Source of the DNA: a virus
Strand: one strand, 5' to 3'
Length of the DNA: 64,000 bases
IMG/VR virus record: IMGVR_UViG_3300049491_000383
Coordinates: 32,001 to 96,000 of that record
The notes beneath the pieces are model-generated. The model was not told where the DNA came from, searched no databases, and saw nothing but the letters and a program-made list of their open reading frames with translations. Positions 4,228-59,104 of the stretch are shown here, one piece after another; position 1 is the first letter of the stretch; each line of letters opens with the position of its first letter. A program made the position numbers and the translations under genes.

Positions 4228-5492
4228 TTTTTTGTGCGGCCAAGTTGTGTTTGTTCCTGTTGTTTAATAAGGTGCATTCTTTCGGTGCGTTCTTCTTGTA
4301 CCATAAAAGTGAATATTTGTCTAACGTCTTCCGACATTGCTTTTCTCTTATCTAAACCAAGCTCATCTGCAAACTCTTGTTCCAAAAAGGCCCTTAGTTG
4401 CTTAGACAATCCATATTCTTTAGCTAAATCTGCAACTTTCTGCACTGCTGGACTACCTGCCGGTGCATCCGAGATGTCATCGTATTCTTTATCGTCGGTT
4501 TTGAAGACTTGAGCAAATACCTTATTAATTTCCTTTTCGCTATATCCGAATTTTAACAGTATACGCTTAATGTCGTTTGTGTCATCCGAATATCCATCGG
4601 AGCCATCTCCAGAGAGACCGTCGGCCCATGCTTGACGCAAATCTTCGACATCAACTGCGTCTTTCCTTAGACCCTTGAACACCTTTCCTAGGCCAGTCGG
4701 TTTGCTGCGTAGATATGCAGCATCTTTGAAGAGTGCCTCGGCATCTGCACGGTTAATTATAGACTCTGATAGGTTTTCACCGAGCGCTCTCCACAGAGCT
4801 TTTCTTTGCGGTGGAGTCATGATCTCACGCACCATCTGCTTGAGCTTTCTCATGTACTCTTGCTTCTTGGCAATCTTTTCCTCTTCGGATGGCTCTGGCT
4901 CACCTGCTGGTTCTTCTGGTTCAGCCTTAGGTGATAGAAGGATATTGAAGATTTCCTTAATATCAGCTTCCTCAAGCTCTACACCCTGGCGATCATAGAA
5001 ATCTTCACTTAGACGGGTTGGATTCTTACCGGGACCCTTATACTTGAAACGTGGCTTTCTCTTATGTGTAAGAGTTAGTGGATCCGAAGTATCTGTTGGA
5101 TCAATATCTTCTGCATCGTCGTTTGAGTATTTCTTTGGCTTATCCTGAGGTTGCAACGGAGTTGCTGGATTTTGCCTCTCACCCGGGGTTACTTCGTTCT
5201 GAAACCAAGTCGACAAATCACCCTCGGGTTTCTTACCCGGAAGTGCTTTAGGCTCGTCTTGCGGAGCCTTTGTGCCTGCACCCTTCTTGTAGACTACAGT
5301 TCTAATTGCCTTGCGAACATCTTCTTCGTCAAAGTCAGTTTTTAAGTCAAGGAAACGGATTAATTCCTGTACTGTAGGTTTTCTATTGTATTTGAGCTTA
5401 CCGGTCTTTGGATCCGAATTACTATTTGCAATCTGATTGCTCTTTAAGAACTGGATCCATTCCCTAGTAAGTGATGTGAGATTAATTGCCAT
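4224..5492 (-). CDS. Hypothetical protein (possible internal head protein)
   Basis: 422 aa charged ORF with LSE motifs, overlapping its neighbours. Confidence 0.6.
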   Translation of the reverse strand: MAINLTSLTREWIQFLKSNQIANSNSDPKTGKLKYNRKPTVQELIRFLDLKTDFDEEDVRKAIRTVVYKKGAGTKAPQDEPKALPGKKPEGDLSTWFQNEVTPGERQNPATPLQPQDKPKKYSNDDAEDIDPTDTSDPLTLTHKRKPRFKYKGPGKNPTRLSEDFYDRQGVELEEADIKEIFNILLSPKAEPEEPAGEPEPSEEEKIAKKQEYMRKLKQMVREIMTPPQRKALWRALGENLSESIINRADAEALFKDAAYLRSKPTGLGKVFKGLRKDAVDVEDLRQAWADGLSGDGSDGYSDDTNDIKRILLKFGYSEKEINKVFAQVFKTDDKEYDDISDAPAGSPAVQKVADLAKEYGLSKQLRAFLEQEFADELGLDKRKAMSEDVRQIFTFMVQEERTERMHLIKQQEQTQLGRTKK

Positions 5493-10625: not shown

Positions 10626-11212
10626 TCCTTCGACATTTCCTCTATCAATAAATTAAGATTCACAACAATTGCCGAAGCATAGGCGATACCGTGAGCTCTT
10701 TTGAATTGGTAGGACTCCTCTCCCTCAACTTTTAGCCAAACTTCCTTCTTAATGCGCTCCCAGTCGTGCTGCTGTAGGTACGCCTTGGCTGGGCGCATAA
10801 TCGCCAGAATCATAGCTAAATCCTCCACAGATTGTGGCCTGTATCTAACTAGCAGATTGCTGTGATCCTTTAGATGGAATAATTGATCAGTAACTTCCTG
10901 ATACAAGAAAAAATCCCACGGCGGTTCTTTGTGCAATAAGTCTAACAGGTGCTGCTCCGACTTGATACCTTTGTACATATTCACATTCAAGAAGTCAATC
11001 TTGAAGTAACCATAATCCTTTGCAATTCTATGGTCAAGCGTTGATATATTAGTAGTAGGATCTCGCGGAATATTCTGAAAGTAAACCCCGGTATTGTGTT
11101 TCTCAACTTTACCGTCGGGACGGTCGATTCGGCCAAAAATACATTCGATACCTTTTAGTATCTCGTCTCTTCCAAAGACGTCTACGTCGACGTCGGTCGT
11201 AATCTTTTTCAT
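10622..11212 (-). CDS. Short DNA polymerase III alpha (DnaE)-like protein
   Basis: DVDVD, HNTGVY, GYFKIDFL, LAIMRP, FKRAHGIAYA match DnaE palm/finger motifs in only 196 aa. Confidence 0.75.
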   Translation of the reverse strand: MKKITTDVDVDVFGRDEILKGIECIFGRIDRPDGKVEKHNTGVYFQNIPRDPTTNISTLDHRIAKDYGYFKIDFLNVNMYKGIKSEQHLLDLLHKEPPWDFFLYQEVTDQLFHLKDHSNLLVRYRPQSVEDLAMILAIMRPAKAYLQQHDWERIKKEVWLKVEGEESYQFKRAHGIAYASAIVVNLNLLIEEMSKD

Positions 11213-13429: not shown

Positions 13430-13761
13430 TATCTAAATCCTAGTTGTTCACGCCTGTATTTTTCCCAATCTTCATCTAGCTTCTTCATATCACGTTTTAC
13501 TACAGTTCTTCCAATTGAAATCATGCTAGGAGAATAACCGAGACGTATAAGATAATCAATTAACATATTTTCAAATCCAAGATGTCTAAATGACATATAG
13601 GTAATTGACAACGCTGTTTCAGAATTATCCTCATACTCCATTGTAATCAAATTCTTTGAAACTTCAGCCCTTAATGAACACTTTACGTCAAGGTTATTTG
13701 CCCTGAAGAATGTTTCTATTAGATCTAAGAAACCATATGATATAATCGAATTAATAACCAT
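13429..13761 (-). CDS. Hypothetical protein
   Basis: 110 aa, translationally coupled. Confidence 0.55.
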   Translation of the reverse strand: MVINSIISYGFLDLIETFFRANNLDVKCSLRAEVSKNLITMEYEDNSETALSITYMSFRHLGFENMLIDYLIRLGYSPSMISIGRTVVKRDMKKLDEDWEKYRREQLGFR

Positions 13762-20938: not shown

Positions 20939-22513
20939 TTAGATAAAAATTGGCATTGGCGCATCGAAGCTCGAACTGACACCATCAGAGACGTCACTGT
21001 TAATGGCTTCCTGGGATTTATCATCCCATGTAGAAATGTAATCAGTCATTCTTACTGCTAAAATCATTGCCATAATCAAGTCATCGGTCTGTCCAATACG
21101 TGCCTCAAATGTATTACCACGTGAAACAAATACCTTCAGTTCAGACAGCAAGCCCTTTGAATTTATCTTCATCTTGCCAGATTCGATCAAGAATTTCAAT
21201 TTAGCACAAGCTTCAAGTTTAGATTTGTTGGTTGTAACAAAACCAGCACGGCGGCCTGTACGACCTTGCAGCCTATTCTTAGGATCGTGCAACATTGTAC
21301 CTGGAAAGTTTTCTTCACCAGTATCACGAATGACAACAAGTGCGGCTTCGCCAAGCGAATTACTTTCAACAGACCAATAAATGTCTCTTGCACCCAGTGA
21401 ATAAATTTCTTCGAGGATCTTCTTCATTGTACGAACCTGTTCTTCAACTGGTGCTTTGTTGTTACTCCATTCTCCAACCTGTACGAGTGTAGGCAATTCT
21501 AGAATTTGAATTGCTGCATTGTCACCACCTGTTCCCATTGAAGGATCAAGCGAGACAACATATGTAAGTTCTGGACGGATGTCGCCAAACCAACGTACTT
21601 GTCCAGTCTTTCTAATCGGAGTCTTAGCTTCAAGTTGTGCAAGCTTAACTGGATTGATAAGTGTTTCTTCGAATGTAATGAACTGACAGTTGTGTTCACG
21701 TAGGAATCTGTCCTCACCTAGAGCAGCCAATTCAGCATCGGCCCAGGTTTGGTCACGGTCTGGGTGACGGTCCCATGTTGCCATGTATGGACGGAATCCA
21801 TTTACACCAACAGTAGTTTCGTTACCGTTGGCATCAACCATCTTGTTTGCTCCCCACCAAATATCAGCAAATTGATCTTCATCGGTGTTTGGAGTAGAGG
21901 TAATAATACACTTACCACCTGTGGACAAAGTTGGTGATAGTGATGTCCAGAATTCCTTAGCAATGTTTGGTTCTACGAATGCAAATTCGTCCAGGTAAAC
22001 TAAGGACAATGACATTCCACGTCCCGTGTTTTCAGTTGTGGTTGTTGCAATAATACGTGAGCCATTATCGAAGTCTACGGAACGTTTGTTGTAGGACTTT
22101 GCACCTGCACGGATATGGTCTGGCACAGATTCGTAAGCATATCGAACTCTGTGCATAATTTCTTGCGCGCCATCGTATTTGTTAGATGCAATAAGGATTG
22201 TAGAATCTTCGTTGAACATAGCATACCATAGAAGGTAGCCCGCGGCGACAGTAGTCTTACCCATCTGTCGGCTGACCATGTTTACGGAGCGGCGCGAATT
22301 GTGGTAATTGTTAATTAAGTCATATTGGAAATCAAACAGATCGAGTTTCTGCCTACCTTTTGTGGTATGCTGAATATACATATAGTTCTGAATGAAGTAT
22401 GTAGGCCCAGTTACAGGGTCCATACATGCCTTTAATTCGTCAATCTGTTCTTTAGTGTACGATACCTTCTGGTATGCACGCTTGACAAGTTTGTCGTCTT
22501 GGTAAATCGCCAT
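20939..22513 (-). CDS. 17: Terminase large subunit (gp17-like)
   Basis: SRQMGKTT, LDEFAFV, ITSTPN, DPSMGTGGD, DDLIMA. Confidence 0.95.
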   Translation of the reverse strand: MAIYQDDKLVKRAYQKVSYTKEQIDELKACMDPVTGPTYFIQNYMYIQHTTKGRQKLDLFDFQYDLINNYHNSRRSVNMVSRQMGKTTVAAGYLLWYAMFNEDSTILIASNKYDGAQEIMHRVRYAYESVPDHIRAGAKSYNKRSVDFDNGSRIIATTTTENTGRGMSLSLVYLDEFAFVEPNIAKEFWTSLSPTLSTGGKCIITSTPNTDEDQFADIWWGANKMVDANGNETTVGVNGFRPYMATWDRHPDRDQTWADAELAALGEDRFLREHNCQFITFEETLINPVKLAQLEAKTPIRKTGQVRWFGDIRPELTYVVSLDPSMGTGGDNAAIQILELPTLVQVGEWSNNKAPVEEQVRTMKKILEEIYSLGARDIYWSVESNSLGEAALVVIRDTGEENFPGTMLHDPKNRLQGRTGRRAGFVTTNKSKLEACAKLKFLIESGKMKINSKGLLSELKVFVSRGNTFEARIGQTDDLIMAMILAVRMTDYISTWDDKSQEAINSDVSDGVSSSFDAPMPIFI

Positions 22514-22516
22514 AAA

Positions 22517-23030
22517 TCAATAATCCCTATCATCATAATCGGGCTCATAATCGTCGCCCGGATCATACTCAGGCGGATCTAGCTTATCTAATTGAGCCTG
22601 AAATGCTCCCAACATACCTTGCGAATATATTGCCGGATTTAACAACTGCTTTAACGTAGCAGGATGAATGTATTTATTAACTGAATGGAATGGAACTTCT
22701 TCATCTTGGATTAAAAACATAGAATCTGTTGAAAAGGCTACCGATTCTACAAGCACATCGGTTCCCGAAGCATATAATGAGCTAGAATATGTGGGACTAT
22801 CAGTTCCATGATTCCAACCTGTTGGATGTTCGTCTGATTCCCATTCGTAGTCAATCTTAGCAGTAATGTCAACATCAAAGCCCACATCAAGGACTTCGCC
22901 GCTGAGACCCATGGCTTTTCCGGCCATGTTTAAACCACCTTCATAGGTGATTGTACTTCCATCGGAATCAAAGTCTCCGTTATAGTCCTGTATGGACACA
23001 TCGGAGACTTGTACCGCTTCAGTTAACTTT
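22517..23030 (-). CDS. Acidic hypothetical ORF, possibly a frameshift extension of 23019..23918
   Basis: Protein-like sequence begins at KKKLTEAVQ at the A10 run; no clear own RBS or start. Confidence 0.5.
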
Positions 23031-50719: not shown

Positions 50720-51880
50720 TTATTTAAGATATTCTTTTAGATACTCTTCTGTTCTCTCAGCTAATACTGGATCAAAAGTAACATTCTGTAAGAAGCTATT
50801 AAACTGCTCAATTGTATTTAGTTCTTTCTGATCCAACAATTTTTGCAATCGGTCGTTAATTTCAATTCGGGCCATTTGATCAACTATACCCGATTTCATC
50901 GAAGTTACATCAGTCTCAGAAATCGGGTTGATGTCAAATGTTATACCCTTAAACCCTTCTTGTCTAAGCTTCAATACATATTCCATTATATCTCTAACAT
51001 TCATATAATTCATAATATTCATTGTGAACTTTATGATAATATTAGTATTTGGGTATTGTTTTCTTCTTTCCTGTAAACCCGACACAATGATCTTAAAATT
51101 TCGATCCCAGAGATTCCAGTTTAAATATTTGCGTGTTGGATTTTCACCAATTGCATCAAGACTACACATTAATACGATGTTAGGATGCTTATCAACAATA
51201 CCATTTAGGATACCAAGTACGGCAGATCCATAAGATAGATTTGTAATAATAGAAATATACCTATTAGAATCAAATGGCAGAGCCATCATAAAATCAATGC
51301 AATCTTGGTCAAGCATTGGTTCACCACCAGTTACTTGCACGTTTTTAAGCAAGTTTACATCAAGTATATCGTGTATTCTTCTTGCTTCTGCAGGTCTTAC
51401 TGCAATGCCTTTGAATTTAGTAAATCTCGATTGCTGATCTTCCCACATCGATGATACAGTCGGGTAGCAATAAACGCACATCAATTGACACTTGTTTGAA
51501 AATGCAATTTCAGCATTTCTAACAGGTTGATATACATCCAGATTTTTCCAATCTAATGGTCTACTGTCGTGGTGTGAGTGGCGGCGCCTGTATGATGGAC
51601 CACCATCGTCGTCAATTTTCCAGCAAGAAGTGCATTGCGCATTCCTCTTGTTATCCTTAATGTCCCGACGAAGTTCAATAAACTTCTTATTCAGTACACC
51701 TGTAACAGGATCAATTGGACTTGAACGAACTTTACAACAGGGAGAAACACTGTTGTCATAGAGATGAATCTGAGGCAATCCAGTAAATGGAATTGTGCAA
51801 CGATTATCTTGTGTCATAAATGTGACCCCATTGCCTTGTTCCACACTTCCCGTAAGTAGGAGGCTAGAGGGGGCATTCAC
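50720..51880 (-). CDS. Radical SAM protein with an N-terminal Cys (twitch/SPASM-like) domain
   Basis: CQLMCVYC (CxxxCxxC), TGGEP, N-terminal PCC..CTSCW. Confidence 0.88.
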   Translation of the reverse strand: MNAPSSLLLTGSVEQGNGVTFMTQDNRCTIPFTGLPQIHLYDNSVSPCCKVRSSPIDPVTGVLNKKFIELRRDIKDNKRNAQCTSCWKIDDDGGPSYRRRHSHHDSRPLDWKNLDVYQPVRNAEIAFSNKCQLMCVYCYPTVSSMWEDQQSRFTKFKGIAVRPAEARRIHDILDVNLLKNVQVTGGEPMLDQDCIDFMMALPFDSNRYISIITNLSYGSAVLGILNGIVDKHPNIVLMCSLDAIGENPTRKYLNWNLWDRNFKIIVSGLQERRKQYPNTNIIIKFTMNIMNYMNVRDIMEYVLKLRQEGFKGITFDINPISETDVTSMKSGIVDQMARIEINDRLQKLLDQKELNTIEQFNSFLQNVTFDPVLAERTEEYLKEYLK

Positions 51881-51929
51881 CTCTTAATGCAGATGCTTTT
51901 AGAAACGATGCGCATCCACAAAATGAATT

Positions 51930-52130
51930 CTATACTACCAGTATCTGGTCTTCTGTCAGACCAATATCAACGCCTGTGTCAAGTTCAATGAGTTTATTCA
52001 GTGATGGCACAATGTCTTTTCTTGCTTTTTCTTTGTCCTTACTTGCAACATAGAAACCAGGAAAATCATCACAGATATATATATGCCATCCATCAGTTTC
52101 CTTATGTTGAACTAGGACGGGAAAGTTCAT
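51930..52130 (-). CDS. HicB/DUF1902-like small protein
   Basis: YICDDFPGFYVAS..E.A pattern. Confidence 0.5.
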   Translation of the reverse strand: MNFPVLVQHKETDGWHIYICDDFPGFYVASKDKEKARKDIVPSLNKLIELDTGVDIGLTEDQILVV

Positions 52131-52366
52131 GCAACCGAATTCCTAATGTCTTGTGCTGTACGGATTTCGTCTGCTTGACGGATTAGGAATCGACCAAGTT
52201 GCTCAACCTGAGTAGGTGTTAGAAACATTTCACTACATCCACGAATTTCTTCGGGAAGAACGTGACGATCAAACTTGACATAAACCGATTCGGAGTACTC
52301 GTCGCTTTCGCGAACAGTTACATCGATTGTGAATGTCGGATTTGCATTAATTCTGAGTTGTGCCAT
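52127..52366 (-). CDS. Hypothetical protein
   Basis: 79 aa after a tRNA. Confidence 0.6.
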   Translation of the reverse strand: MAQLRINANPTFTIDVTVRESDEYSESVYVKFDRHVLPEEIRGCSEMFLTPTQVEQLGRFLIRQADEIRTAQDIRNSVA

Positions 52367-52383
52367 TTTGATTCCAAGTTAAT

Positions 52384-52459
52384 TGGTGCCCCCGCCATGA
52401 TTCGAACACGGGACCCCCGCATTACAAGTGCGGTGCTCTACCAGCTGAGCTACAAGGGC
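52384..52459 (-). tRNA. tRNA-Thr(UGU)
   Basis: Canonical, loop ctTGTaa, CCA; TTGACC-17-TAAAAT promoter at 52480-52508. Confidence 0.93.
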
Positions 52460-52512
52460 ATATCCTTATTTAGTATCTTATTTTACAGCATTGTTCTTAT
52501 ATGGTCAAGCAC

Positions 52513-53334
52513 TCAATTAATTGAGCAAACTGCGCTCTTGGCCTTGTTAGCGCTCTTGGTCCGCGAGGGCCAAATTGTATCTGCAAATTTCGCCTGTTTT
52601 GGCATAGGAAACACAAGCTTAGAGTCCTTTTGTACCTGTGCCAAGCTCGTCACAAATTGGTTCAACGAACCTTTTCCAGTTTCGTGCTTAAATTCAAACA
52701 CAATAACTTCGTTGGTTTCAAGATCGACCAAAATCTTGTAGAATCCGTTTGGAACAGTTACCATGCTAGTACCGATTGTCTTATCTTGAGCTCTATTATA
52801 GACTGGGCCAGCATAGATTAGAATCCTGTGATCGCGATTAACTGCCCACGCGCGTGTCTGGGCTTCAAGCTTACTCCAAATTCCGCGATTGAATGCTGGC
52901 AACTGTGGAGTCATGTTTGAAAGGATAAAACTTTCACGAGCTACTTCTGGATCCCAACTCATGTCTGCCGAGTTAGCAATGTGACCCATATCATATCCGG
53001 ATTTACTGTAATCCTTAACTTCTGCACGTTTATCTGCTGGAAGTGATCGATCAGATTTGAATGCACTTAGGCGCTTTTCGCAACCGGTTGCATTTGCTGG
53101 AGTAAGGACATAGGCAACCCACTGTGGGATCTTTGCCTTGTTATCGTGCTCAAGGAAATACGCTTTTCTGCAAATTAGGGTTGTATCCTGTTTTGCACCT
53201 GTTGGTTGACCAAACGGAACCTGTGCAGCACATTGCTTCACATCCAATGGATCTGACTGTGATTGTGCATTGGCTGTTGAAGCGAACGCAACTAGAATGG
53301 TAAGGAGTATATTTTTGATCATAAAAAAGCCCAT
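52513..53334 (-). CDS. Secreted DNA/RNA non-specific endonuclease (NucA-like)
   Basis: Signal peptide, SGYDMGHIA, SNMTPQ..FNRGIW..LE, VPNGFYKI. Confidence 0.9.
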   Translation of the reverse strand: MGFFMIKNILLTILVAFASTANAQSQSDPLDVKQCAAQVPFGQPTGAKQDTTLICRKAYFLEHDNKAKIPQWVAYVLTPANATGCEKRLSAFKSDRSLPADKRAEVKDYSKSGYDMGHIANSADMSWDPEVARESFILSNMTPQLPAFNRGIWSKLEAQTRAWAVNRDHRILIYAGPVYNRAQDKTIGTSMVTVPNGFYKILVDLETNEVIVFEFKHETGKGSLNQFVTSLAQVQKDSKLVFPMPKQAKFADTIWPSRTKSANKAKSAVCSIN

Positions 53335-53384
53335 GTGATAATATACGTATTTATCACAGGGGCTGTCTACCTGGAGCGGGCAAG

Positions 53385-53573
53385 TTATTTCTTAGCAGGT
53401 GCTGCTACTTTCTTTGCCTTTTTTGCCTTCTTGACTTTCTTCTTTGCTGGTGTTGCCTTCTTGGCAGCGACAGCAGATGCTGCCTTTGCTGGTGCGGGTG
53501 CTACTGGAGCAGCAGCTGATGCACCAAACGACACTGCTAGTAGAACTGCAAGTGCTAATAGTGATTTCTTCAT
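53385..53573 (-). CDS. Small Lys/Ala-rich exported protein
   Basis: Signal peptide plus AKKATPAKKKVKKAKKAKK; AAAGGA RBS. Confidence 0.65.
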   Translation of the reverse strand: MKKSLLALAVLLAVSFGASAAAPVAPAPAKAASAVAAKKATPAKKKVKKAKKAKKVAAPAKK

Positions 53574-53590
53574 ATAATTCCTTTTTGTTA

Positions 53591-53666
53591 TGGAGCGGGT
53601 AAGGAGGCTCGAACTCCTGACATCTTGCTTGGCAAGCAAGCTCTCTACCAACTGAGATACACCCGC
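53591..53666 (-). tRNA. tRNA-Gly(GCC)
   Basis: Loop ttGCCaa, U73-CCA. Confidence 0.92.
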
Positions 53667-53682
53667 GGCAATCTATATTTAT

Positions 53683-54081
53683 CTAGTATAACGGAAGTCC
53701 CAATGATTTGCGACCTCTACCCTTATTTGCCGCACCACGATGTGGTGATTGACTGTGACAGTTGGGGCAGATTAGGCGAACATTAGATGGTTTATCATCT
53801 GCAGAATTTCCATCAATATGATCAACCTCAAGTGTGATAGATTTCCCTAACCAATCAGTTACTGTGCAACCTTCATTTTCACAATTATATCCACGGTCTT
53901 TTGTAAGATATTTTCGTATGGTGGGACGATCAATCTTCTTTTCTAATGTCCCCGAATACCAGGCCTCTTTGTGTAGCTTTGATTTGTGCAATCCTCTGCA
54001 TGTATTTGAACAATACTTTCCAGAAAACTGATGTGGAGAATATTCAAAATCTTTTTGACAATTAAGACAAGTAGCTTCCAT
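53683..54081 (-). CDS. HNH endonuclease (paralog of 44058..44522)
   Basis: CLNC..YCSNTC; LEVDHIDGN..NVRLICPNCHSQ. Confidence 0.88.
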   Translation of the reverse strand: MEATCLNCQKDFEYSPHQFSGKYCSNTCRGLHKSKLHKEAWYSGTLEKKIDRPTIRKYLTKDRGYNCENEGCTVTDWLGKSITLEVDHIDGNSADDKPSNVRLICPNCHSQSPHRGAANKGRGRKSLGLPLY

Positions 54082-54174
54082 GGTAGAGTCCTTTTGATTT
54101 ATTTATCACTCTACCGCACTCACTCAGTCGAAAAGGAGAGTCTCCAGACTCTCCTGCTCTACGCTACCGACCTC

Positions 54175-55608
54175 TTAGAAGTCGTAACGCTGGACCATGA
54201 CGGTCTTCAGCATGATGCTGATCGGTGTCATTTCTTCACCACCTAGCACTGACTTAACAATGCTTGGAGAGAAGCCAGACACAAGAGCTGCACCAGCCTT
54301 GTTATAGGTCACCGGGCTGTTACCGGCGCGGCCGTTCAAGTTCCAGAATACAACCTGCGGTACCTTGTACCCTGCAGCCTGATATTCCTTCTCGATGAAC
54401 TCCATCGCCGATACGCTAACCGGGCCGCCGCCTGTCGAGTAACGACCGCTCTTACCAGTACCACCCGAAGTGATGCACTGGTCGAATTCCATGTCCGACA
54501 AGATCAAGACCTTTGTCGGCATTTCCTTCTGCGGAACCTTACCCTTGATTGCGGCAGACAAGATTAACTTGAATACTGCACCCAGGTCGGTGTTCATTCC
54601 CCAATCCGAACGTTCCATCTGGTTGAAACGCTGTTCCAAAGTACCAGACAACTTTACCATCTGTGGCGAACCAGAGAAAGTAACGAACTGATCCTTGAAC
54701 ACACCACCCATACGCTCGGAAGTGTACAGGCCAAGTGATACAGCTACGTCCAGCGCAGTTACGCTACCGGATACGGCCACACCGCTCATCGAGCCCGAAA
54801 CGTCAACAACCGGTAGGATGTTTTCGTCAGAACCTTCCAAGTAGTTAGGCAATGCCTTCCACTGTGCGTTTGCAACAGCCTTGTCACCGTTACGAAGCGA
54901 ACGGATCACATCGTAAGGGTACGCAACCGAAGCGTTGATCTTGGCTTCACCAGATTCCAACTTCTCCTTGTACTTTGCGTAACCGGCCGGGTCGTGCTTC
55001 AAGAATGCCTTCTGGTAACGACCAGCAGCAACTGAAGGAACGTGTGGGTACACGATTCCAGTCCAGTCCTGAGCGCACATCTTCTGTTCAACAGTGTTGG
55101 ACAGACCGACCAAAAGCTTACGGTAAGCCTTAGGAGTCAACTTCATGTACGAACGGATCTTGTTGGCTTGTTCGCCCTGACGCGGCATCCACTTCGCGCA
55201 CAGACCGTCTTGCACGTCGTTCAACGCGAAAGCAATCATGCGCAGAGCATCACGCTCCAGCACAGTACCAAAAGTCATCAAGACGTCGTCCCAACGACCA
55301 AGTTCGGGAACCTTCACCAACAGGCGTTCTGCAAGCTTCGGCTCGGAACGGATTACGTAACCGAACAGCTTACGGAAAGTTTCACGCTCACCCGCACCAC
55401 CACGTGCGTCACGAGCCCATTCAAGGACACGGATCGCAACTTCGGAGTCTTCCACCAAAGCACCTGCGAAAGTGCTTGTGATGTCCTTACCACGGCTTGC
55501 ACCGGCCAAGAAGAAGAGGTCCACGTTCTTGTTCAAAGACGAGGAGTTTGTAACTGCGCCGTTGGAAGTTACTGCGGATGCGTTTACGGCTTCAAATAGT
55601 GTTGTCAT
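54175..55608 (-). CDS. Ro60/TROVE-related vWA protein (DUF2828 type)
   Basis: Helical N-domain WARDARGGAGER, GRWDD, AKWMPR; vWA MIDAS VDVSGSM, MNTD, ILSDMEFD, VFWNL, SGFS. Confidence 0.8.
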   Translation of the reverse strand: MTTLFEAVNASAVTSNGAVTNSSSLNKNVDLFFLAGASRGKDITSTFAGALVEDSEVAIRVLEWARDARGGAGERETFRKLFGYVIRSEPKLAERLLVKVPELGRWDDVLMTFGTVLERDALRMIAFALNDVQDGLCAKWMPRQGEQANKIRSYMKLTPKAYRKLLVGLSNTVEQKMCAQDWTGIVYPHVPSVAAGRYQKAFLKHDPAGYAKYKEKLESGEAKINASVAYPYDVIRSLRNGDKAVANAQWKALPNYLEGSDENILPVVDVSGSMSGVAVSGSVTALDVAVSLGLYTSERMGGVFKDQFVTFSGSPQMVKLSGTLEQRFNQMERSDWGMNTDLGAVFKLILSAAIKGKVPQKEMPTKVLILSDMEFDQCITSGGTGKSGRYSTGGGPVSVSAMEFIEKEYQAAGYKVPQVVFWNLNGRAGNSPVTYNKAGAALVSGFSPSIVKSVLGGEEMTPISIMLKTVMVQRYDF

Positions 55609-55625
55609 TTTGTTTTTCCTTTATC

Positions 55626-55745
55626 AGAATCAGTTTTACTTTGCCTGCTGCTCTACCAACTGAGCTACCTCACTATTTCTAGTGAAGGCGGGACTCGAAC
55701 CCACGACCGTCTGGTTATATTAAGTTTTGTTGCGGAATTGATTCT
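55626..55745 (-). ncRNA. Y-RNA-like (YrlA-type) permuted tRNA mimic
   Basis: Order T-arm (GTGGG-TTCGAGT-CCCGC), GAAA-capped acceptor stem, D-arm (GCTC-AGTTGGTA-GAGC), enclosed by AGAATCA/TGATTCT; directly upstream of the Ro-like gene. Confidence 0.8.
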
Positions 55746-55803
55746 TTATTATAGAGAGGTATTCGATACAACTCAGTGTTCGGATACATCCATAAATAAA
55801 ATC

Positions 55804-55902
55804 AGATTAGCTTTTGGCGAGTTTTTGCTTTCCCCTCCGGAAAGGTTCTTTGACCCGAAGGCCAAATAGTTCATGGTTTTATTTTGTTGCTGTAACTAAT
55901 CT
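55804..55902 (-). ncRNA. Second Y-RNA-like element
   Basis: AGATTAGTT/AGCTAATCT closing stem, ACAGCAACAAAA, internal cUUCGg hairpin and a second hairpin. Confidence 0.65.
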
Positions 55903-55924
55903 TTAGTGTTTGCAAGTGTCTACT

Positions 55925-56305
55925 TTATACTTCTTCCACAATCTCGTCAATGAATTCAGTTACGTATCCGGGGTTTGGGCAACTTACAGCCGGGTCAACA
56001 AGAATTGTTGCTCCAATTGTAATCTCTTCATCGTCGGAATCAACCAACTCATAAGAGATATAGTAACCACCGGTGCCTGTAAACGAATGCCATTCATCGG
56101 GGAGTTCAACCTTGAGTTGCTTCTCTTTGATGATTACCTTAGCATTATTCATTGCACCCCTTCGAATCATCTCCTGAATGCTTTTCATTACATCAAAAAC
56201 ATTCTGGGGTTCCGAAGGCCATTTAGTAACGCTCGTATTCTTCTCCCAAATAAAGGCTGCGGCCTCGTGTAAGGCTGCGAGAGGATACGATACATTAACA
56301 ATCAT
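55925..56305 (-). CDS. Hypothetical protein embedded in the RNA array
   Basis: 126 aa ORF between RNA elements. Confidence 0.65.
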   Translation of the reverse strand: MIVNVSYPLAALHEAAAFIWEKNTSVTKWPSEPQNVFDVMKSIQEMIRRGAMNNAKVIIKEKQLKVELPDEWHSFTGTGGYYISYELVDSDDEEITIGATILVDPAVSCPNPGYVTEFIDEIVEEV

Positions 56306-56330
56306 TGTGCTTCTTTCTAAAGTAGAAAAC

Positions 56331-56590
56331 AGAGTGATGTCAGGGACAAACTTTTCATCCGGAGATTACTAACTTTGCTAAGAGAGCCTAACCCCTCGTT
56401 CGAACCTTTTACATCGTCCTAGGATGTTTGCTGTACGTAACATCTGGTTTCAACGCCATGCTTCTTGAGGCTATAGCTCCACCAGAATTACTAATGCACA
56501 CCTTCAACGGGTTGCCCCTCCACTATGCATCTTTTAACCAGCGCCATGATACGGATTTTACGCCGTGAATTGGTTTGCTGTATTCACTCT
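56331..56590 (-). ncRNA. Third (double/nested) Y-RNA-like element
   Basis: AGAGTGA/TCACTCT stem + TACAGCAAA; nested GATGTTA/TGACATC stem + TACAGCAAA. Confidence 0.6.
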
Positions 56591-56608
56591 TTGTATATAA
56601 CAAGTCTT

Positions 56609-56638
56609 ATTATATAGTGTGTTTACTTATCCCGTCAA
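56609..56638 (-). promoter_or_regulatory. Sigma70-like promoter for the RNA array and Ro-like operon
   Basis: TTGACG-18nt-TATAAT, 18 nt before the first RNA element. Confidence 0.65.
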
Positions 56639-56676
56639 CCTAAAACCGTTGCGATAATAGGTCAAAAATGACGGTT

Positions 56677-57423
56677 TTATTTTTGCGATTGGACGTGTTG
56701 TAACTCTTTGTCAATGAAATCTGCACCACGCTTCAAAAGCCGCTTATAATCCGGAGAATTATTTTTATCTCGGAACATGCCTGCTACGTCATGTACTTCT
56801 AATTCATACTTGAGCATTTTGTGTGCCTTGTTTCGTGCCTCAATCTGTGGCAGGGCTGCAAGACGTTTGATCTTTGGTACAAGAGAATTTAGGACTTGGA
56901 CAAATCTAGCATTTATTTCTGCAGGCTGCGCCAGATACTTCATATCTGGAGCATAAGGATCGTTCTTCGACTTTCTATATTCTTTATCTTTAGGAGTTGA
57001 ATATCGCTTACTTGCTGCTACTCTGTATTCAGATTTAACATCGTCCAACATGTGTCTAAGTTCATGAGCTATCGTAGACTTCATGAAATCCGATGATAGA
57101 TAATCAGAGTTAAATATCATTGATTTAGTATTTGCATCCCAGAGGCCGCCAGGTGCATCTTTAGTGCCCGGATTTTCTTTTCTGACACGATCCAATAATG
57201 CAGAGTCGGACATGATGACAATCTTTATGTCATCTATTCCCTCAAATGGTGTGTCGAGGATTTGCCCAATCTTCCCTACATACAATGTTTCAGTATTTTC
57301 GTCGTCCCAATCTAAATCCTGATCTGCATATTTTTGCAGGAAAGAATAAAGCGGGTCAGCTAGGGAGATTAGTGCCCTATCTTCTTCTGTAGTTTCAACT
57401 AGGAATAATTCTTGCAGTCTCAT
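56677..57423 (-). CDS. Hypothetical protein with an HExxH metallopeptidase-like motif
   Basis: STIAHELRH, Y..QPAEINA; MRLQELF N-terminus; late promoter at 57442-57449. Confidence 0.65.
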   Translation of the reverse strand: MRLQELFLVETTEEDRALISLADPLYSFLQKYADQDLDWDDENTETLYVGKIGQILDTPFEGIDDIKIVIMSDSALLDRVRKENPGTKDAPGGLWDANTKSMIFNSDYLSSDFMKSTIAHELRHMLDDVKSEYRVAASKRYSTPKDKEYRKSKNDPYAPDMKYLAQPAEINARFVQVLNSLVPKIKRLAALPQIEARNKAHKMLKYELEVHDVAGMFRDKNNSPDYKRLLKRGADFIDKELQHVQSQK

Positions 57424-57454
57424 AGCGTATCCTTGATACGCTATTTATCACAAA

Positions 57455-57841
57455 TCAGGTAACAGCAACACCACGAAGAATGTCAAACTCGTTTGGACGA
57501 AGTTTGAGTTCAATCATGATATCGCGGCGCTCTTCGTCTGTCTTTTTGATCCAGGCAGTCATAGACTTTTCATCACCACGCATATAGGATGGCATATTGC
57601 CATCAATCCATTTAGCAAGGTCCTTGAAACTCCTACCGCTCCATGAACTATCAGCTCGTAGTATGGCTGTCTGAAAGTTATTCTTCAGCACTGCTTCCAG
57701 AAAGCTCCCTGGTGGCAATCCATAAGCCATGTAGTTCCACAATCCTTCCCGAATAGCATCTGGAACAGAATCAAAATAGGCAAATGTTGCCGTAAATTGC
57801 GGATGGATTGATCTGTAGTCCATAAGTGGCCTATATTCCAT
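57455..57841 (-). CDS. Conserved phage hypothetical protein
   Basis: YMAYGLPPGSFLEAVLKN...RAD. Confidence 0.7.
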   Translation of the reverse strand: MEYRPLMDYRSIHPQFTATFAYFDSVPDAIREGLWNYMAYGLPPGSFLEAVLKNNFQTAILRADSSWSGRSFKDLAKWIDGNMPSYMRGDEKSMTAWIKKTDEERRDIMIELKLRPNEFDILRGVAVT

Positions 57842-58018: not shown

Positions 58019-59104
58019 TCAATCCTCTTCCTTTAATAGGAATTTGTTGCTGATGGTTTTGAAACTAAAACCACCATCCATTCTCTTGTAAACAAGACCT
58101 TCACGAATCGCATGCTTGATGCTAGGACCTTCTGCAAATGCAAGCAACTTATCCACATCAAACAACCCGAATTCATACAATGGAACATCCATATGCAGAA
58201 CAGGGACATGATGTACCATCTCGCGATTTACACCTCGTGCCCAAAGCTCATCCAAAATCAGATGACGTTCTCTCGGAGGTACATAACCACCTGTGGTAAT
58301 ATTGAAGATGTCAAACACAAACAATTTATGCGAAGCAAATGCCTCACGATTCTTCTGTATACCCGGGCCCATGAGCTCAGCTTGTACAGCAAAATCTCTG
58401 TCAAAAGAGCGCATAATATCGTGTAGCCCGCTGTCTACAAACATGCGTACCAAACTATTGTGCTCGTTTTTAGGATCATCCAACTTCAGTTCCCAATTAC
58501 GACCGCAAACACCCGGAACACCATCCTTTACAAATGCAGTAAAGGAAGTACCATCGAACTTCATGCTGATTTCGTAACGTGCATCCGCGTTATCAACAAA
58601 GATATCGCGCTTCATGTTTTGGCAACGTTCCTGATCAGTCTTTCGAATGAATGCAGGGAAGTTACCCTTCACTTGACCAGCAAGTTCTGTAGGAATGGCA
58701 GCTTCATACTTCTGGATATCCAACAAGTCAGATACGTCGGTGCCGACCATAAAGAACTCTGAAAGTTCCTGTCCTTCATCTTCGTCGGAATCAATAAAGT
58801 CGTTGAAGAACAAATTCACAGGTAATGCAAGGCCCTGGCTGAGCTGACCACGCAACTTAATAGTCTTGATACGGAAACCCTCACGCTCTCCCATTCTCTT
58901 GGAGGAGTTTCTGCGCAAGATTTCGAATTCGGGACGGACAGGCAAATGGCTGTCGATTTCAAAGTAGACACACAAATCGCCCACATTGAATTCAGACTTC
59001 TTTACCACGCATTGCCAGCCATCAATTTTTGCCAGCTGAACTAAGTCCGCACCTTCGATAGGTAGCAGATCATCAATCCTACGTATTGTTGCAAGCTTTC
59101 TCAT
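58019..59104 (-). CDS. RNA ligase (DRB0094/Rnl2-like) with an N-terminal OB domain
   Basis: RKLATIRRI, YFEIDS, LRGQLSQGL, KTDQER, KFDGTS, AELMGPGIQKN, REGLVYK, FKTISN. Confidence 0.9.
   Translation of the reverse strand: MRKLATIRRIDDLLPIEGADLVQLAKIDGWQCVVKKSEFNVGDLCVYFEIDSHLPVRPEFEILRRNSSKRMGEREGFRIKTIKLRGQLSQGLALPVNLFFNDFIDSDEDEGQELSEFFMVGTDVSDLLDIQKYEAAIPTELAGQVKGNFPAFIRKTDQERCQNMKRDIFVDNADARYEISMKFDGTSFTAFVKDGVPGVCGRNWELKLDDPKNEHNSLVRMFVDSGLHDIMRSFDRDFAVQAELMGPGIQKNREAFASHKLFVFDIFNITTGGYVPPRERHLILDELWARGVNREMVHHVPVLHMDVPLYEFGLFDVDKLLAFAEGPSIKHAIREGLVYKRMDGGFSFKTISNKFLLKEED

Follow-up and report, generated by a model that had tools for sequence, protein, structure and literature searches.

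We analysed a stretch of 64,000 nucleotides (nt) of viral DNA, hereafter the window, which corresponds to bases 32001-96000 of the 136-kb viral record IMGVR_UViG_3300049491_000383; the record is estimated to be 35% complete and its source is a giant freshwater phage. The window holds three small elements on the minus strand, all no more than 1 kb upstream of a gene for a Ro60-like protein of the DUF2828 family and on the same strand as this gene. Each element carries a terminal stem and an unpaired motif, which we together call the handle, and we refer to the elements as handle RNAs. We consider it likely, with a probability of roughly 70%, that the three elements are one family of small structured RNA genes whose products are partner (Y-RNA-like) RNAs of the DUF2828 protein. 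The locus contains the following features (ORF, open reading frame; aa, amino acids).

56609..56638 (-): sigma-70-type promoter TTGACG-18-TATAAT, with 11 of 12 consensus positions, assigned on the consensus match alone
56330..56593 (-): handle RNA 1, about 260 nt, with a 7-bp terminal stem, CAGCAA and a large structured interior
55925..56305 (-): 126-aa ORF between handle RNAs 1 and 2, recognised as an ORF with homologues
55801..55905 (-): handle RNA 2, about 100 nt, with a terminal stem of 9 bp, UUACAGCAA and two small hairpins in its interior
55623..55748 (-): handle RNA 3, about 120 nt, with a terminal stem of 7 bp, CCGCAA and an interior that resembles a permuted tRNA
54175..55608 (-): gene for the Ro60-like protein, 477 aa, with DUF2828 and DUF7788 matches and a predicted fold
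54131..54155 (-): hairpin resembling a terminator, about 9-10 bp with TTTT behind it, directly past the stop codon, read from the sequence

The three elements share one construction, in which the RNA begins with (U/C)AAAGA and the first 7-9 nt pair with the element's own 3′ end. In element 1, the 5′ strand of the stem is AGAGTGA (56590-56584), CAGCAA starts at 56580, and the 3′ strand TCACTCT (56337-56331) is followed by a G at 56330. Element 2 has AGATTAGTT (55902-55894), CAGCAA from 55892, and AGCTAATCT (55812-55804) with a G at 55803, while element 3 has AGAATCA (55745-55739), CCGCAA from 55735, and TGATTCT (55632-55626) with a G at 55625. The unpaired C(A/C)GCAA therefore stands at a fixed offset, 10 nt past the first base of the stem, in all three, and the G that follows the 3′ strand in handle RNAs is usually part of UGA or UGU. 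From the end of element 3 to the ATG at 55608 the distance is 16 nt, and an AAGGA ribosome-binding site lies beside the element. A preliminary description of this DNA had placed three minus-strand elements at these positions, with end-to-end stems of free sequence and kept pairing, a conserved unpaired C(A/C)GCAA, unlike interiors, and a last element about 17 nt ahead of the ATG. All three were located there; their 7-9-bp stems show compensatory changes in relatives, where C(A/C)GCAA also recurs, and the interiors are indeed unlike, comprising a structured domain of about 240 nt (element 1), two small hairpins (element 2) and a permuted tRNA-like module (element 3).

The same description had presented the elements as an array led by one promoter, and this was borne out only in part. 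The promoter at 56638-56609 is the best site within 53600-57600, and transcription from it would begin a few nt ahead of element 1, as judged from its position. The array is not contiguous, as the 126-aa ORF splits elements 1 and 2, and a weaker promoter-like site (55950-55922, 9 of 12 consensus positions) lies ahead of element 2. A short ACTTG(C/T) motif was also observed about 10 nt before several handles, directly after -10-like hexamers; it is present at 55912-55930 and 56596-56606 in the window and upstream of handles in four related loci (L015, L016, L018 and L026), and it may mark a phage-specific transcription start region. The terminator-like hairpin at 54131-54155 was not called by the automated terminator scan because its T run is only four long. 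Two further candidates for handles were rejected: a second CAGCAA nested in element 1, near 56435, is not kept in homologues, and a perfect 9-bp stem with CCGCAA at the correct spacing (57610-57812, minus strand) lies inside the upstream gene ORF128 without conserved flanks and is probably due to chance.

Clustering, recurrence and covariation of the handle

Within the 64-kb window, the 5′ pattern AAGA-N7-CMGCA has exactly three matches on the two strands, and these are the three elements. Shuffled sequences contain 1.4 matches on average and 16 of 100 shuffles reach three or more, so the count by itself is insignificant; what stands out is the clustering of the three matches within 861 nt on the strand of the gene. 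We then used a covariance model, R1, built from 13 minimal elements of related loci, which ranked elements 3 and 2 at the top of the window with 27.8 and 27.6 bits. A second model, R2, was rebuilt from the 49 matches of R1, none of which came from this window, and gave 40.7 bits (E 1.7e-6) for element 2 and 35.6 bits (E 2.4e-5) for element 3. These were the top two matches in the 128 kb searched, and the next-best match in the window scored 16.6 bits. Two other model matches in the window, at 10803-10872 and 13618-13658, lie inside ORFs and were taken as chance.

To place the elements in a wider context, 37 viral loci with relatives of the protein (41-87% identity) were gathered, and the 25 non-redundant ones were used for model matches. 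Nearly all of the related loci show the same type of element just upstream of the gene, in many cases as a minimal hairpin, some 40 nt long, that immediately precedes the ribosome-binding site. At E≤1, all 49 R1 matches in the 25 loci (13 of which are the model's own training sequences) are on the gene's strand, 43 upstream of the gene and six downstream. A strict descriptor that is independent of the models gave a similar strand preference in 36 loci, with 87 gene-strand matches outside the gene and four inside it against 17 on the opposite strand, and at least one match in 31 of the 36. Enrichment near homologous genes, as anticipated in the preliminary description, is thus seen with both methods (49 of 49; 87 versus 17). 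A loose form of the descriptor was abandoned as a search tool as its background was too high.

The terminal stem also covaries, as the same description had anticipated. In alignment A2, which was fitted to the model, the stem is paired in 95.3% of cells, compared with 72.1% in shuffles and at most 44% in slid controls. All seven pairs show changes on both sides, with 78 double-change cells against 24.6 expected, and the covariation score was reached by none of 500 shuffles. For element 1, the true terminal stem is kept in nine homologues (L002, L003, L006, L007, L008, L012, L014, L015 and L018) with both-side changes in five of its seven pairs, and a 10-sequence alignment of the element revealed at least three covarying internal helices together with conserved blocks.

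These results bear on the possibility that the locus simply holds three AT-rich hairpins that share a short motif by chance. Such a coincidence would fit the insignificant count of the 5′ pattern and the fact that stems of 6-7 bp within 300 nt are common. It does not explain why models from other genomes rank elements 2 and 3 as the top two of 128 kb, or the strand bias of 49 to 0, the covariation of the stem and the recurrence of the handle in distant phages (below), and we regard it as extremely improbable.

Recurrence was followed into 12 distant named phages that encode a homologue, and a handle is present in 10 of them. R1 found handles beside the gene in Fusobacterium phage phiKSUM, Campylobacter phage CPX, Staphylococcus phage BE02, Enterococcus phage iF6, Listeria phage AG20, Felix O1 and Bas63, and in these ACAGCAA is kept in the context of unrelated stem sequences. 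R1 is skewed to AU-rich AGAAU stems and missed the handles of Faith1 and Thrax3, which were later found by the descriptor scan. In mycobacteriophage Faith1 (L053, about 4472-4760), three tandem handles with GC-rich UGGAC-type stems and CAGCAA occupy an unannotated 370-nt gap after gp55, the gene annotated as 'Ro-like RNA binding protein'. The descriptor scan also found four handles in Thrax3, where the stretch from the last tRNA to the gene holds three, and two in Ci1, which belong to a tRNA array at a distance of 10 kb from the gene. Immediately downstream of the gene in Felix O1 and Bas63, tRNA genes are separated by unannotated gaps that are filled by the matches, at the following positions.

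Bas63, L060 (MZ501086), 22070-22142, 22237-22300 and 22692-22765: handle matches, individually weak (E 0.17-2.8)
Felix O1, L049, 4752-4824, 4919-4982 and 5373-5446: handle matches in gaps between tRNA genes, with weak individual E values (0.17 to 2.8)

Bas63 gp130 is 44% identical to the 477-aa protein over its full length (E 1e-129). A gene-strand handle beside DUF2828 genes spans phages of Proteobacteria, Firmicutes, Actinobacteria, Campylobacter and Fusobacterium.

The position of many copies raises the question of whether the elements are cis-acting sites instead of RNA genes, i.e. whether they are bound in the 5′ leader to repress DUF2828 translation or to time mRNA processing, with the upstream copies serving as extra operators. 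The location of element 3, directly ahead of the ATG and beside the ribosome-binding site, agrees with this, as does the finding that in 18 of the 25 related loci a handle, often the 40-nt minimal hairpin, ends 12-34 nt before the start codon. Copies downstream of the gene in Felix O1, Bas63, BE02 and Faith1 speak against this, as do the five copies in this genome that lie 15-43 kb from the gene in tRNA arrays (see below). Moreover, an operator would need neither the permuted tRNA module nor the conserved structured domain of 240 nt. We therefore hold a purely cis-acting nature of the elements to be unlikely. For the last handle, which is 16 nt away from the ATG, autoregulation of translation by the protein may be an added role; the preliminary description had named operators for autoregulation as its alternative.

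Variable bodies and neighbouring tRNA genes

The interiors of the handle RNAs were compared with known RNA families. Element 3 matches the Rfam model of YrlA (RF02553) at model positions 27-81 with 35.8 bits (E 3e-5), against a gathering score of 69. In its interior, a T arm is followed by an acceptor-like hairpin, closed and 7 bp long, and then by a D arm, which is the permuted arrangement characteristic of YrlA; elements 1 and 2 are without this YrlA-type tRNA-like module. The fold z-scores of elements 2 and 3 are -2.43 and -2.57, respectively. For the structured element 1 there was no Rfam match below E 1, and none of the handle RNAs reached an Rfam family at threshold.

Five further handle RNAs were found in the same genome, 15-43 kb from the gene.

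G000:C1 102975-103033, 122521-122583, 123808-123875, 127057-127118 and 130692-130799 (-): extra handle RNAs, among tRNA genes

Four of the five abut a same-strand tRNA gene within about 10 nt, and the fifth also lies among tRNA genes. One carries a T-arm-like hairpin. In the three short ones, 7-nt loops fit the pattern of an anticodon loop (pyrimidine, U, three bases, purine, any), with Thr-, Lys- and Tyr-like triplets; these loops were read by eye from the sequence, and minimum-free-energy folds did not draw them. Taken together, the T-arm-like hairpin, the anticodon-like loops and the YrlA-like module of element 3 suggest that the bodies of the handle RNAs are largely tRNA pieces. The window itself carries 10 tRNA genes. 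When 20 loci were searched with Rfam at gathering thresholds, only tRNAs were found (85 matches, all on the gene strand), and YrlA (RF02553) had no match at its gathering score in these loci.

This association could mean that the handle marks sites of processing, or serves as punctuation, in phage tRNA operons and is read by an RNase or another factor unrelated to DUF2828, with the DUF2828 gene nearby because it shares the tRNA region. Many handle copies do abut same-strand tRNA genes, the loci hold nothing but tRNAs at the Rfam gathering thresholds, and our scans covered carriers of DUF2828 and not tRNA-rich phages without it. On the other hand, the phiKSUM handle is directly before the gene in a 7.5-kb stretch with no annotated tRNA, and in Faith1, where three handles come after the gene, the stretch examined is likewise free of annotated tRNAs. 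A processing site would presumably also need no conserved heptamer that is single-stranded and constantly spaced from a covarying stem, and the combination of terminal stem, motif and variable body is the architecture of a Y RNA, next to a protein with a predicted Ro60 fold. A tRNA-processing signal is the main rival reading, and it appears quite unlikely to us as an account of the handle.

The DUF2828 protein and its gene neighbourhood

The 477-aa protein matches two Pfam families, PF11443 DUF2828 (1e-26, 94.2 bits, cut-off 29) and PF25043 DUF7788 (3.8e-51, 173.9 bits, cut-off 27.1), and phrog_850, 'RNA-binding protein' (6e-150). An AlphaFold2 model computed from a 61-sequence alignment has a predicted local distance difference test score (pLDDT) of 89.9 and a predicted template modelling score (pTM) of 0.89. 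Foldseek with this model gave 13 matches at E≤0.001, and the best 12 listed are all Ro60 chains aligned over approximately the full length. They include Ro60 of Thermus phage phiLo (9KOP, E 1e-8), Xenopus (1YVP, template modelling (TM) scores 0.64/0.59), human (9NEN) and Deinococcus (2NVO). Sequence identity to solved Ro60 is 12-19%, and the DxSxS residues of the MIDAS (metal ion-dependent adhesion site), D269, S271 and S273, are invariant in the 61 aligned sequences. The protein is thus predicted with high confidence to fold as a Ro60-like helical-repeat ring with a vWA domain. The preliminary description had called it a TROVE-like protein with a vWA (DxSxS) domain; the predicted Ro60 fold and the invariant MIDAS agree with this, and TROVE itself was unmatched, DUF2828 and DUF7788 being found in its place.

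DUF2828 is a very large family, with 6177 clusters at 50% identity (E≤0.001), and a homologue of the 477-aa protein is present in 710 of 50,697 phage records. Long DUF2828 homologues also occur in plants and fungi. A nucleotide search of the locus against the same number of phage records (50,697) gave no match.

The genes upstream of the array are given below.

58019-59104 (-): RNA ligase, with PF09414 and an N-terminal PHA02142 OB domain; phrog_968
57455-57841 (-): ORF128, a syntenic upstream gene of no known family
56677-57423 (-): ORF248, a syntenic upstream gene

ORF248 has no family in Pfam, PHROGs or the ESM Atlas. The order RNA ligase, ORF128, ORF248, RNA array and DUF2828 recurs in many related loci. 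The 126-aa ORF between elements 1 and 2 has homologues of 32-54% identity in four related loci (L011/L013, L012 and L021) and no match in Pfam or PHROG. On the other side of the DUF2828 gene, the tRNA region at 50720-54081 (minus strand) also holds genes for a radical S-adenosylmethionine (SAM) protein (50720-51880), a non-specific DNA/RNA endonuclease (52513-53334) and an HNH endonuclease (53683-54081).

Comparison with Ro60, Y RNAs and Class I RNAs

To interpret the locus, we compared it with published systems. In 254 bacterial species and in 22 phages, YrlA RNAs were found adjacent to Ro60 genes annotated as TROVE, and their 5′ motif was defined as GNCGAA(N)G (Chen et al. 2014, PMC4201824). 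In Thermus phage phiLo, Yrl1 and Yrl2 were found via a CGAA motif and bind the phage Ro60 as well as host PNPase (PMC12135203). In some jumbo phages, TROVE proteins occur together with a partner that is tRNA-like (Iyer et al. 2021, PMC7824862), and a bacterial RNA repair operon includes the RtcB ligase and the RtcA cyclase (PMC7790460).

Our locus resembles these systems in several respects. The ring and vWA/MIDAS fold, predicted here, is common to bacterial and phage Ro60 (Rsr), including phiLo Ro60 (PDB 9KOP and 9L5Y). As for Ro60 with YrlA and YrlB, small RNA genes adjoin the protein gene on the same strand; as in Y RNAs, the ends are closed by a stem, a conserved motif lies on the 5′ side and the rest forms a variable module. 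The T arm, closed acceptor-like stem and D arm of element 3 succeed each other as in YrlA, and the nearby RNA ligase recalls the RtcB/RtcA operon (PMC7790460). There are also differences. By sequence, the protein in the window belongs to DUF2828/DUF7788 and not to TROVE. The handle motif reads C(A/C)GCAA, offset by a constant 10 nt, and is not GNCGAA(N)G (PMC4201824) or CGAA (PMC12135203), which agrees with the earlier remark that CAGCAA departs from the classical Ro60 site (the elements have CAGCAA, CAGCAA and CCGCAA, respectively). Moreover, there are up to eight handle RNAs per genome, with very unlike bodies and some of them in tRNA arrays.

Another close system is Bas63 gp130 (Felixounavirus), a direct homologue that is also beside a tRNA array. 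It was reported to resemble Ro60 and to counter the Ppl defence, and expression of gp130 alone, by way of a plasmid or T7, restored plaquing on Ppl (PhageMaP preprint, PMC11482910). The PhageMaP authors guess that some annotated Bas63 tRNAs are Y RNAs (PMC11482910). Our best handle matches in Bas63, in contrast, are the unannotated gaps between the tRNAs, and the part of the PhageMaP preprint covered here describes no handle motif (PMC11482910). Likewise, no description of the CAGCAA handle was found in the literature on DUF2828 and on phage Ro60 and Y RNAs, with the supplements of Chen et al. 2014 and of PhageMaP outside its scope.

We consider a Ro60/Y-RNA-like particle of a second lineage to be the best explanation of these data. 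The transcript from the promoter at 56638 would be cut into discrete RNAs, and the tRNA-type polycistronic transcripts elsewhere in the genome would likewise release discrete handle RNAs. Ro60 binds Y RNA at the outside of its ring and reads the conserved 5′ strand of the stem; by analogy, the DUF2828 protein would recognise the stem with CAGCAA. The variable interior would then be the payload, as proposed in the preliminary description, such that one DUF2828 ring could read a common handle on several RNAs, and the payload could recruit or decoy factors that recognise tRNAs. The location in a tRNA region, the synteny with an RNA ligase and the Ppl phenotype of Bas63 together suggest that the particle probably acts in tRNA or RNA surveillance, repair or counter-defence during infection.

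Several points weigh against a Ro60/Y-RNA-like particle. Binding of the handle by the protein and the existence of discrete handle RNAs are both steps that we infer; the 14 sequencing runs listed are all of DNA. Two of the 12 distant phages, KVP40 and ME3, gave no handle with R1 or the descriptor scan. As Bas63 gp130 is active when expressed alone, at least its anti-Ppl activity may not need phage RNAs. On the protein side, TROVE was not matched in Pfam at E≤0.01, a single-sequence search of the PDB gave no Ro60 match, and a profile search of the PDB placed Ro60 chains first with a marginal E value of 0.02 that covers the MIDAS stretch only. On the RNA side, a handle 12-34 nt before a start codon also fits a purely cis-regulatory role of that copy, and both R1 and R2 give element 1 a wrong 3′ partner (16.4 bits), probably because of its interior of about 240 nt. 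The pair counts of the terminal stem lean towards structure because alignment A2 was fitted to the model, and the loose descriptor has a background of about 0.25 matches per kb in shuffles.

Finally, the handle resembles that of the Class I RNAs, a class reported as unique to Dictyostelia. These RNAs have a terminal stem of 6 bp in which pairing and not sequence is kept, an unpaired motif of 11 nt by the 5′ strand, a variable rest, a transcribed CUGU and their own upstream promoter element, and the one protein shown to bind them directly is an RRM protein (Kjellin et al. 2021, PMC7919456). Aligned end to end with the Rfam Class I model (RF01414), handle RNAs of this genome scored 34.8 (E 4e-6), 25.6 (E 9e-4) and 20.7 bits, and element 2 scored 15.7 bits, none of them reaching the gathering score of 41.5. 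Element 2 shares UUACAGCAA with the RF01414 consensus; at the start of the motif the two are not the same, and in element 3 CCGCAA stands in its place. Both groups have the stem conserved in pairing only, the variable rest and C/UG(U) after the 3′ strand, they appear to share in part an unpaired motif containing ACAGCAA directly 3′ of the 5′ strand, and the short phage members agree with the Class I RNAs in a length of about 60 nt. In contrast, the Class I RNAs are eukaryotic and carry a dictyostelid promoter element, and the handle RNAs are from phages with bacterial-type promoters. There was no dictyostelid among the 12 long DUF2828 homologues listed, a search that did not extend to the near-length set. 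That the phage handle (terminal stem, ACAGCAA and UG) is the dictyostelid Class I handle, with DUF2828-type Ro60 paralogues as its reader, is a tentative and rather doubtful proposal.

For DUF2828, a very large family that is not known to have a partner, the conserved adjoining handle provides a testable ligand. A second protein lineage with a different recognition motif would extend the Ro60/Y-RNA principle. The handle also marks unannotated RNA genes in well-studied phages, i.e. in the gaps of the Felix O1 and Bas63 tRNA arrays and in the gap after Faith1 gp55, and gives a mechanistic lead for Bas63 gp130, the reported anti-defence gene against Ppl. The Class I resemblance, if it is more than convergence, would tie a eukaryotic RNA class to a protein family. 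If the handle is truly shared, there would be a second ancient Ro/Y-like ribonucleoprotein lineage across phages, bacteria and eukaryotes, with a candidate protein partner for the Class I RNAs, whose function is unsettled in the covered part of PMC7919456, and the phage particle would present parts of tRNAs, which could serve as decoys or as platforms for repair against defences that target tRNAs.

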